NCBI GenBank assembly: GCA_028866835.1
Contig: JAGWHJ010000003.1
Location: forward strand, 1-62,670
Length of the DNA: 62,670 nt
Source: Candidatus Micrarchaeota archaeon
GTDB lineage: Archaea; Micrarchaeota; Micrarchaeia; Micrarchaeales; CABMGC01
Direction of reading: 5' to 3'
Shown here: positions 26,191 through 28,152 of the stretch, in pieces
Numbering within the stretch: position 1 is the stretch's first letter
Layout of the letters: every line of letters starts with the position of its first letter
Notes under the pieces: generated by a model
The model's input: the letters and a program-made list of their open reading frames with translations, nothing else
Database searches by the model: none
What the model was told of the DNA's origin: nothing
Program-made: the position numbers and the translations under genes

Positions 26191-26427
26191 ATGGCTAACT
26201 ACGGCATTAGATACGGTGTAGGCCTCAGGAAGAGATACGATTCGGTGAAGGCGGACAAGCAGAGGAGGTACAAGTGCGACCTCTGCGGCAAGGTGACCAT
26301 CAGAAGGGTCAGCAACGGAATATGGCACTGCAGGCATTGCAACGCAACCTTCGCTGGAGGGGCGTACACGTTCAAGACGACCGGCGGCGAGACTGCCGCA
26401 AGGATGCTTACAAAGCCGAAGGCATAG
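26191..26427 (+). CDS. rpl37ae: 50S ribosomal protein L37ae (eL43)
   Basis: RYGVGLRK, CDLC...GIWHCRHC, FAGGAY. Confidence 0.95.
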   Translation: MANYGIRYGVGLRKRYDSVKADKQRRYKCDLCGKVTIRRVSNGIWHCRHCNATFAGGAYTFKTTGGETAARMLTKPKA

Positions 26428-26564
26428 AAATGAAGAACCCCGACCTAAAGTTCGGGGTATCTAAGAGAAGCAAGACAATTAACGAGGGAAGATAATACTG
26501 AAGTATGACGTAGGTATCCGAAAGGTATATATATGTTGTAGCTCCCAATATAAGTGTGGTAAAT

Positions 26565-26843
26565 ATGTCCGAACAAAACAACATGGAACGAAAGATGATA
26601 GCTGTAAGGTCTGAACATGCTGCATGGGTAGCAATGTTCAAAGAGATAGGTAAGACCTTCAATATATCTGATGAGGAACTTAACAACATCAAAAAATATA
26701 GACCAATGTTCAGTGCGATAGAAAAATGGGGCATTGAATATTTTAAGTCTATGAAAGCACAAGGAGTAGAGGCATGGCAAGCAAAAGGGTTATTCCAAGA
26801 CGACCCTTCAATAACAGCAACTAACGATTTAAAGGTGATTTGA
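26565..26843 (+). CDS. IS passenger hypothetical protein (92 aa)
   Basis: ATG preceded by TATA-like TATATATAT; coupled to the next ORF by TGATG overlap. Confidence 0.65.
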   Translation: MSEQNNMERKMIAVRSEHAAWVAMFKEIGKTFNISDEELNNIKKYRPMFSAIEKWGIEYFKSMKAQGVEAWQAKGLFQDDPSITATNDLKVI

Positions 26844-27112
26844 TGGCTGCTGGAATAATACCAAGATATACTGATGAGAAGCCTCTATTCAAAGGCGATG
26901 TTGCCTATGATAAAAATTGCATAAAACATGGCGACTGCAAAGCAACGAAAGAACTTAGGGAAACAGTGTGTAAATACTGTGGCAAAAATCTTGATAAGGC
27001 AGGAATGAGATTTTATGACATAGGGGAATTTCCAATGCATGTTTATGTGCATGCAGATTGCGAAGAAGACTACATAGAACAAGAACAGAAAAAACAGATG
27101 GTGAAAGCATGA
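26843..27112 (+). CDS. IS passenger small Zn-finger-like protein (89 aa)
   Basis: GGTGA RBS upstream. CIKHGDC, CKYC and HADC motifs. Confidence 0.7.
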   Translation: MAAGIIPRYTDEKPLFKGDVAYDKNCIKHGDCKATKELRETVCKYCGKNLDKAGMRFYDIGEFPMHVYVHADCEEDYIEQEQKKQMVKA

Positions 27113-27231
27113 AGATAACCACAATCAAGATAAGCACAGACACAGTAAAGAAACTAAAGAAGGCGAAGATATACAAACATGAATCATACGAAGAAATAAT
27201 CAATCGTCTATTAGGTGTCAAGCATGATTAA
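27109..27231 (+). CDS. 40-aa ribbon-helix-helix/antitoxin-like DNA-binding protein (not in ORF track)
   Basis: MKITTIKISTDTVKKLKKAKIYKHESYEEIINRLLGVKHD, matching the archaeal TTIxIS...ESYxEVIxRL pattern. GGTGA RBS and ATGA overlap. Confidence 0.75.
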   Translation: MKITTIKISTDTVKKLKKAKIYKHESYEEIINRLLGVKHD

Positions 27232-27790
27232 CCGTTATCCACACCACAAACAACCATCAGAGCAACAGTTAGACACAATCAGGAAGGAAGCACACACAAC
27301 TTACAATGTGAATTACCATTGCGTATGGATTCCAAAGTACCGCAGAAGAATACTCTCAACAAGGAATCTAAAGAGAATCTTGGAAGACATAATTAGAGGT
27401 CAATGCGAGGAAAGAGATTGGAAGGTTCTTGCACTTGAAACACAACCCGACCATATTCACTTGTTCGTAAGTGTCCAGCCTAAGTTCTCAATCTCTTATG
27501 TCATGAACATAATCAAGGGCAATACTTCAATTCAGTTAAGGCGTATCTTTCCACAGCTAAAGCAAAACATGGGAAAGTCATTATGGGCTGATGGTTACTA
27601 TGTAAGCACCGCAGGGTTCATCAGCGAAAACAAGGTTAAGCGTTACATTGAAGACCAGATACACCACTTAAGGCAACAGGAATACCACAAGAAATTCGGA
27701 GGGGTTCAAAGAGGGATTCGTGACTTCTTTGAAAATTCGCCCCATTCACTCTCCGCCCTAAAGGGTGGAGTTCCTCTGGGTTCTTATTAA
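27224..27790 (+). CDS. tnpA: IS200/IS605 Y1 HUH transposase
   Basis: YHCVWIPKYRR, PDHIHLF (HUH), IKGNTS, LWADGYYVST, RYIEDQ (catalytic Tyr). Confidence 0.96.
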   Translation: MINRYPHHKQPSEQQLDTIRKEAHTTYNVNYHCVWIPKYRRRILSTRNLKRILEDIIRGQCEERDWKVLALETQPDHIHLFVSVQPKFSISYVMNIIKGNTSIQLRRIFPQLKQNMGKSLWADGYYVSTAGFISENKVKRYIEDQIHHLRQQEYHKKFGGVQRGIRDFFENSPHSLSALKGGVPLGSY

Positions 27791-28152
27791 TGGTAAGGAT
27801 AAGCTACTCACCAACGGAAGAGCTCGTCGTGCATGAGATACTTCACGTGCAGATGGATGACTTGCTCAGGGAGCGCGTAACTCCTGCTGCGGTGATGCCA
27901 TTGTACTGGTGCCAGGGCATACTGTTCAGCTTCAATTCACTGCCCTTGTCAGATGAGGTCACCAAGGATTACCTTAAAGGGAAGATACACTGGCTTGAGG
28001 TACATTACACCAGCCTTCCCGAATACACGCCGATACTTCCGCTTCATGACGATGAATACAAGTCCACGCTGAACGTCAGAGTTATAGATACAAGCTTCTC
28101 TGCACTCCATCAGGACTTCATAAAATGGCTCAAGGTCAACACAAAAAAGTGA
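27790..28152 (+). CDS. Hypothetical protein in the rpl37ae-rpoP operon
   Basis: 120-aa ORF with host-like codon use, 4 nt upstream of rpoP. Confidence 0.75.
   Translation: MVRISYSPTEELVVHEILHVQMDDLLRERVTPAAVMPLYWCQGILFSFNSLPLSDEVTKDYLKGKIHWLEVHYTSLPEYTPILPLHDDEYKSTLNVRVIDTSFSALHQDFIKWLKVNTKK

Follow-up and report, generated by a model that had tools for sequence, protein, structure and literature searches.

For bare selfish DNA the textbook example is the IS200/IS605 family of insertion sequences (ISs), whose persistence is attributed to TnpB. The HUH and YxxxQ motifs define the family transposase (PMC6006769), and a guide tetramer 5' of each terminal hairpin pairs with the cleavage word (PMC3597680, PMC6006769), the linker being 15–16 nucleotides (nt) at the left end (LE) versus 8 nt at the right end (RE) (PMC3597680). 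According to the available text of PMC10691335, IS200 and IS605 elements were previously not known to carry cargo, and rare TnpB-linked cases have been found. The family occurs in more than 65% of Micrarchaeota genomes, in a survey whose accessible text makes no mention of "passenger" (PMC13343696). Here we describe an element of 1,360 bp at positions 26430–27789 of a 62,670-nt stretch (the window), which is contig C30 (GenBank JAGWHJ010000003.1, assembly GCA_028866835.1) of a 1.09-Mb, 88% complete Candidatus Micrarchaeota archaeon genome. An earlier note on this DNA had proposed an IS200/IS605 element carrying tnpA plus three passenger genes in place of tnpB. The interval is one IS200/IS605-family element, a tnpB-less transporter variant that belongs with neither the IS200 group nor the IS605 group. 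Very probably it comes from a lineage with exchangeable passengers between its ends and is likely still mobile.

Among described elements, IS608 (ISHp608) and ISDra2 share with it a Y1/HUH transposase, TnpA, and hairpins with 5' guide tetramers and linkers of 15 nt (LE) and 8 nt (RE); three of its relatives use AAAG, the LE guide of IS608, here with TTAC. Unlike IS608 and ISDra2, it has no tnpB, no Rfam match over the gathering score and passengers between its ends, its genes are read from a promoter inside the RE towards the LE, and its TnpA is longer by about 20 residues at the N-terminus and also extends further at the C-terminus. As in the IS200 group, tnpA is the sole mobility gene, whereas three more open reading frames (ORFs) lie inside the ends. 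It lacks tnpB or iscB with an omega RNA at the right end, a trait of IS605/IS1341 elements. Here tnpA lies opposite to the predicted transposed strand, whereas at eight of nine sister-clade loci it lies on the same strand, just before the RE. A small ribbon-helix-helix (RHH)-like gene inside the element overlaps the tnpA start, in the position of the RHH gene of Arc-containing IS605 elements (bioRxiv 10.64898/2026.09.24.754181). Those tested, as far as the accessible part of that report goes, are bacterial and encode tnpB (arc+tnpB or arc+tnpA+tnpB), whereas here there is further cargo and no tnpB, and the regulator slot of the family alternates between DUF7557, Arc-like and AbrB genes. The cargo cases in the available text of PMC10691335 are TnpB-associated (an example being branch Ser-3), in contrast to the whole Y1 clade without tnpB found here, and ISHp609 has a fixed four-gene layout of orf1, orf2, ORFA and ORFB (accessible text of PMC3091627), whereas here the cargo varies. 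Measured against the transporter IS (tIS) concept, as given in the available part of PMC9330008, passengers lie inside the ends, and co-movement is seen for a duplicated relative and presumed for this copy. The accessible texts of PMC9330008, PMC11870625, PMC13565253 and PMC12647753 contain no tnpB-less cargo clade or Micrarchaeota case. More broadly, neither a tnpB-less cargo-carrying Y1 clade nor such elements in Micrarchaeota appeared in the literature searched, which several key reviews and supplements lie outside.

The transposase gene itself is intact. tnpA (27224..27790, plus strand) encodes 188 amino acids (aa) and scored 128.5 bits against PF01797 (cut-off 23) and 141.6 bits against NF033573 (cut-off 55), with HIH at residues 77–79 and YIEDQ at 141–145. 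Its start is backed by six aligned homologs, and it matched the ISHp608 transposase structure at E 1.8e-21 and structure 2ec2 at 5.3e-31; close relatives were found in Micrarchaeota/Micrarchaeaceae. The coding region runs on across the LE hairpin, and the A of the host ATG that follows completes its TAA stop. No tnpB lies in the element, as the earlier note had said, and the genome's four PF07282 matches are all on other contigs. An Rfam scan gave two chance-level matches, below gathering scores.

Both hairpins fold as single-stranded DNA (−7.7 and −8.6 kcal/mol), and with the profile matches (PF01797, NF033573) this bears out the earlier note's pairing of two subterminal hairpins with an intact HUH/Y1 TnpA. 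The transposed (top) strand is predicted to be minus, which makes the hairpin at 26437 the RE and that at 27751 the LE, and the element's genes run on the plus strand, from RE towards LE. In IS608, guide position 1 pairs with word position 2, guide 2 with word 1 and guide 4 with word 4, and we predicted cleavage words with this scheme, position by position. The RE (26438..26461, minus) has a hairpin at 26438–26457 with loop TTTA on the minus strand and guide GATA at 26461–26458, assigned by hairpin and guide rule; its predicted cleavage word C_R is TCAT (26430..26433, minus; ATGA on plus), 8 nt lying between hairpin foot and cut. The LE (27736..27789, minus) comprises an upper hairpin at 27751–27770 (loop TTTA), guide GGAA at 27774–27771, a 15-nt linker and a lower stem around the guide. 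Its predicted target word C_L, CCAT (27790..27793, minus), is the ATGG start of the host gene that follows, which encodes 120 aa. The rule of guide, word and linker thus holds at both ends, with GGAA/CCAT at 15 nt and GATA/TCAT at 8 nt. Drawn by this rule, the element keeps the start that the earlier note gave it and ends at 27789 rather than 27785; the boundaries may slide by a few bases since AATG is present at both junctions. The family needs no terminal inverted repeats; an 11-nt imperfect inverted match between the termini is present here and has no role in the model.

The same end structure recurs beyond this copy. A genome-wide scan for hairpin, guide and predicted word together returned seven ends, versus 0, 0 and 0 in three shuffles, and four of the seven are the ends of this element and of a sister on contig C29, whose RE is 86% identical to this one over 50 nt. 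The predicted word was found at 18 of 18 RE and 18 of 18 LE ends (LE: 13 strict, five with one G-T pair), a count of 36/36 that is partly circular, the ends having come from hairpin scans near tnpA and the words from the rule itself. RE guide and word types covary (GATA/TCAT, AATA/TTAT, AAAG/TTAC), and in the close group the RE word follows the guide at a near-fixed position (14 of 14 in the permutation set, p = 3e-5, with rows that are not independent). The upper and lower LE stems also covary in 16 aligned ends, where 87.9% of cells are paired versus 30–46% when slid, with two-sided changes in 13 of 14 pairs. At four sites (C29, L134, L135 and L054) the frame of the interrupted gene reopens when the predicted element is removed, and the reconstructed sites, together with the 2-nt gap here, are those of insertion 3' of a short word without target duplication. 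The exact RE pattern had no match in viral contigs.

The element stands within an exosome–rpl37ae–(120-aa gene)–rpoP operon, the exosome labels coming from reading the translations. Its flanks, both outside the element, are rpl37ae (26191..26427, plus; PF01780) and the conserved 120-aa gene (27790..28152, plus), followed by rpoP. The insert has 39% GC versus 52% for the genome, and GC at third codon positions is 0.31–0.46 in its ORFs versus 0.61–0.76 in four host genes. Excision in silico leaves the rpl37ae stop, 2 nt and the ATG of the 120-aa gene, whose start codon is fixed by homologs, and this restored 2-nt gap resembles the short gaps at relatives' loci. The 120-aa gene was matched in 39 of 41 genomes, own included, and the empty-site comparison used the best 29 of the 38 relative loci. 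The order rrp42–rpl37ae–120 aa–rpoP is kept in 29/29, and the gap between rpl37ae and the 120-aa gene is 5–99 nt in 27 of them. None of the 29 has a match to ORF1, ORF2, ORF3 or TnpA at that junction. The earlier note had named the presence of the passengers there in relatives lacking tnpA as fatal to its proposal, and this refutation failed. Its other refuting condition, hairpins from two independent elements, failed as well, the two being the matched LE and RE of one element. Two of the 29 (L022 and L023) hold unrelated inserts at this junction, 317 and 612 nt long, in which neither IS hairpins nor tnpA matches were found. An assembly artefact was rejected. Contigs of run X1, which may be the source, cross both element junctions without differences. 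Short contigs of X3/X4 cross the RE junction; the runs X3/X4 and X5/X6 yield near-identical pieces and are not independent.

We also placed the element among its relatives. TnpA scans returned at least 80 metagenome, 55 genome and 10 viral-contig loci; in a search of 50% clusters, only a few clusters came close to this TnpA group, and the close group is present in 6 of 248 genomes of the order, own included. In a quick tree of 124 distinct TnpAs over 146 columns, this element falls in a 20-row clade (SH-aLRT 92). A tnpB neighbour within 4 kb is found for 0 of the 20 clade rows, seven of which have less than 1,200 nt on one side, versus 66 of 104 rows outside. We delimited 17 two-ended elements (two pairs being the same element, and one lacking tnpA) and two one-ended ones. 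Cargo is found in every two-ended clade member, mostly with no relation from one member to another, and the tnpA-bearing ones span 1.0 to 3.0 kb. The genome itself holds a second cargo element (L014, C29:518-2022; target TCAT) whose TnpA is 65% identical and whose passengers differ, with the order unknown ORF, AbrB-like gene, tnpA, Cys-rich ORF. It splits a methyltransferase-like gene near its 3' end, the frame reopening on removal, and a single X1 contig covers it whole. The earlier note's call of a "transporter" variant is thus upheld by like ends with different cargo in the same genome and in relatives. Its phrase "in place of tnpB" fits by position here, but relatives carry cargo on the other side of tnpA too. 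Contigs of run X2 share the promoter or LE of the C29 element and then diverge, hinting at more family members.

Most of the 41 passenger and regulator proteins scanned in sister elements matched no family. The cargo includes a C5 methyltransferase with an NgoFVII-like nuclease (L134), an N6 methyltransferase–Mrr fusion (L052), an N6/N4 methyltransferase (L058), a JAB domain (L053, 5456-5932), a TBP-like domain (L061, 5531-5884) and, by PHROGs, a methyltransferase (L186) and a radical SAM protein (L055, 53-769). One type II restriction-modification element, with AbrB, tnpA, a C5 methyltransferase and a restriction enzyme, occurs twice in genome G282, the copies being 99.97% identical over 2,973 bp aligned and lying in different flanks; therefore cargo moves as a unit. 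L134 and L052, whose TnpAs are 97.7% identical, cease to match exactly at the downstream cargo's start codon, and their AbrB genes are only 33% identical; therefore both slots are exchanged faster than TnpA drifts. The two G282 copies lie on contig C3 (L046, L047), and one of them splits the signal-peptide region of a large surface-protein-like gene.

By analogy with IS608 and ISDra2, the element would move by peel-and-paste: TnpA would bind both hairpins of the minus strand, the guides GGAA and GATA would direct its cuts to CCAT and TCAT, and a single-stranded circle carrying ORF1-ORF2-ORF3-tnpA would be released. Reinsertion would take place 3' of a CCAT word without target duplication. This copy would have inserted between the stop codon of rpl37ae and the start codon that follows, co-directional with the host operon, and it is likely tolerated because it lies between genes and reads along that operon. 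Transcription of all four genes would start from a single promoter inside the RE, which ORF3, the 40-aa RHH-like protein, likely represses, like Arc in IS605. The passengers would be hitch-hikers outside the transposition machinery, probably gained through ordinary recombination at times when ancestral copies resided in the AT-rich viruses or integrated elements that DPANN archaea host. The viral origin of the cargo and the loading route form the weakest part of this mechanism. Two clade members lie in IMG/VR contigs, and L054, L062 and L135 lie near integrase genes. Elements are 6–13 GC points below host-chromosome flanks (exception L051), and in most small contigs element and flank agree. 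We infer from this an AT-rich viral or integrative reservoir for the family; the label "virus" is presumptive for most host contigs.

Several observations weigh against this reading, beyond the partly circular end count and the quick tree with its short rows. Contigs of six runs contain no excised circle, joint or empty allele (contigs cannot show rare forms), and no second copy of this particular element was found. Hairpin scans found no ends for clade members L056, L060 and L128. The distant group shows a small regulator gene only in L061 and none in five elements, and most regulator matches fall below Pfam cut-offs. As to the passengers, ORF1 had no relative among proteins of 50–161 aa, a search that left out fused or longer forms, and no match in viral contigs and no usable atlas match; ORF2 stands on a single homolog and likewise had no match in viral contigs. 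Finally, the 81 flanking proteins scanned gave no family match to capsid, portal or terminase.

The cargo unit matches the earlier description of four overlapping genes, AT-rich and with a TATA-like box. The four ORFs (92, 89, 40 and 188 aa) overlap at stop/start junctions. Their predicted promoter is a B recognition element (BRE)/TATA-like box, GAAAGGTATATATATG, at 26520..26535 (plus), identified by sequence; sister elements have a TATA-like box in the corresponding position. Just upstream of the box in this element, at 26496-26507, is a 5-bp inverted repeat, ATACT-ga-AGTAT. A sigma-70 promoter scan gave chance-level results, its model not covering archaeal promoters. ORF1 (26565..26843, plus; 92 aa) had no homolog in the searches made, including 247 other genomes of the order. 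ORF2 (26843..27112, plus; 89 aa) is a predicted zinc-binding protein, with CxxHxxC upstream and then CxxC...HxxC. Its homolog, P0003, is 67% identical and keeps all Cys/His ligands, which supports ORF2 as a real zinc-binding protein, as judged from sequence. No match to ORF2 was found in 400 other genomes of the phylum; atlas matches to unnamed small proteins, DUF2175 and zf-PARP-like proteins are leads only. The earlier suggestion that the captured genes are virus- or plasmid-like is conjectural for ORF1 and ORF2, neither of which matches viral contigs.

Where the elements insert raises a different possibility. The target words on the gene strand (ATGA, ATGG, ATAA and TTAA) contain start or stop codons, and the element could be a gene-cassette shuttle whose words, antisense to such codons (ATGA, ATGG, ATAA), let TnpA join, load and swap whole genes in the manner of an integron. 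Cargo and regulator swaps between near-identical elements do break at start codons, cargo genes are whole and overlap at ATGA-type junctions, and there are one-ORF mini-elements without transposase (L054:1384-1623 and a second beside L051). In the distant group, four of five testable insertions lie at ORF starts, versus a background of 93 of 660 ATGA words (14%) in the contigs concerned; the classifier behind these figures is crude and mislabelled both this site and C29. Yet every gene begins and ends with such words, so the breakpoints are uninformative, and selection for intact genes gives the same pattern. Known TnpA chemistry moves the DNA between the ends and offers no simple way to load DNA inside, and no inner hairpin remnants were found in this element. 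Moreover, of the nine close-group insertions with both ends, four split ORFs, two are intergenic and three lie at gene junctions, namely a start for this element and stops for L131 and L053. Survival bias explains the start and stop sites as well as targeting does. We regard active loading of cassettes as distinctly unlikely. Unlikely too is the reading in which the Y1 clade is a minimal cassette shuttle of DPANN archaea and their viruses, its guides converged on start/stop antisense words for harmless junction insertion and TnpA itself loading and swapping whole genes (regulators, methyltransferases, restriction systems) in slots either side of tnpA, which would be an integron-like function resting on peel-and-paste chemistry in the absence of TnpB.

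Very unlikely in our judgement is an addiction module, with ORF3 as antitoxin and either ORF1 or ORF2 as toxin, that would retain the element in TnpB's stead. ORF3 (27109..27231, plus; 40 aa) is a DUF7557 protein with the RHH-like DNA-binding part only (PF24434, 36.3 bits; cut-off 25). The idea draws on the genome's two other DUF7557 proteins, of 77–78 aa, each of which stands directly before a ParE-family toxin (C11:23117-23612 and C5:43125-43612; L209, L211), an arrangement that points to DUF7557 as the DNA-binding domain in a family of archaeal antitoxins. A weak match of ORF3 to VAPB_antitox (PF02697, below cut-off) points the same way, as does the restriction-modification pair of one relative, a known kind of addiction module. 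ORF3, however, aligns only with the N-terminal half of both host proteins (40–41% identity) and stops where the DNA-binding part stops. It lacks their C-terminal tail of about 35 residues, and unlike in DUF7557–ParE/RelE toxin-antitoxin pairs, tnpA comes next instead of a toxin. No toxin family was matched by ORF1 or ORF2 in Pfam, NCBIfam, PHROGs or PADLOC, or by the 41 sister-element proteins at E<=0.001. L134 and L052 have a small regulator with only restriction-modification genes beside it, and no partner gene is common to the family. An antitoxin as the main role of ORF3 was rejected on the missing tail and the lack of a matched toxin family in the element. The maintenance device replacing TnpB that the earlier note had considered loses its footing for the same reasons, together with the alternation of the slot with AbrB- and Arc-like genes.

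ORF3 is instead likely an Arc-like autorepressor, by analogy with the RHH protein that overlaps tnpA in IS605. In the accessible part of that report, Arc binds and represses the element promoter (bioRxiv 10.64898/2026.09.24.754181). Autorepression is the best reading of ORF3 because of this precedent and because a small RHH- or AbrB-like gene is present in each of the nine close-group elements, immediately preceding tnpA in six of them. In sisters, unrelated genes of the AbrB or Arc-like kind occupy this slot. The structure model of ORF3 has two helices (pLDDT 68), and no PDB match was found by sequence or by Foldseek.

That the interval is not one element at all, and represents two independent insertions or a decayed viral fragment between two hairpins, is extremely improbable and was rejected: the element is single-copy and its passengers are unique to this locus, but its ends are one matched RE and LE with correct asymmetry and polarity, its removal leaves a normal 2-nt intergenic gap, and the layout recurs in 17 two-ended elements, one of them duplicated whole.

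Seen across the lineage, a transposon family that is normally bare probably serves these archaea and their viruses as a carrier of genes. A lineage without tnpB in any of the members seen, yet with swappable cargo of up to ~2 kb that includes defence genes, shows that such elements have another way to persist, and it offers Micrarchaeota-type archaea and their viruses a path for gene flow. The natural guide/target pairs GGAA/CCAT, GATA/TCAT, AATA/TTAT and AAAG/TTAC, with the cargo sizes, offer material for trying Y1 transposases as small DNA-guided insertion tools. This copy alone is modest, with two passengers without assignable function.

Other observations touch the wider family and the host locus. 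Mini-elements without transposase and with one small ORF lie at L051:6560-6910 and L054:1384-1623, and ends are also found at L054 5745-5780; L054 holds five family ends in 6 kb beside an integrase gene. It is unusual to find a TBP-like gene as transposon cargo, as in L061, where the virus-like contig also has a chaperonin gene. Contig G258:C3 (L048, L206, L207; 30 kb) resembles a provirus or an integrative element; it encodes two integrases, a ParB-like protein and many large proteins without assigned function, and holds a 2.06-kb family member with five passengers. On contig C38 (1-1640; L003/L006), an IS605-type element has a 78-aa hydrophobic ORF between the tnpA end and tnpB, a possible passenger in a TnpB-bearing element; a very similar tnpB lies on C40. 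The 120-aa gene downstream of the insertion (27790-28152), with no Pfam, NCBIfam or PHROGs family, has a paralog on C1 and is a candidate uncharacterised core gene of this order.

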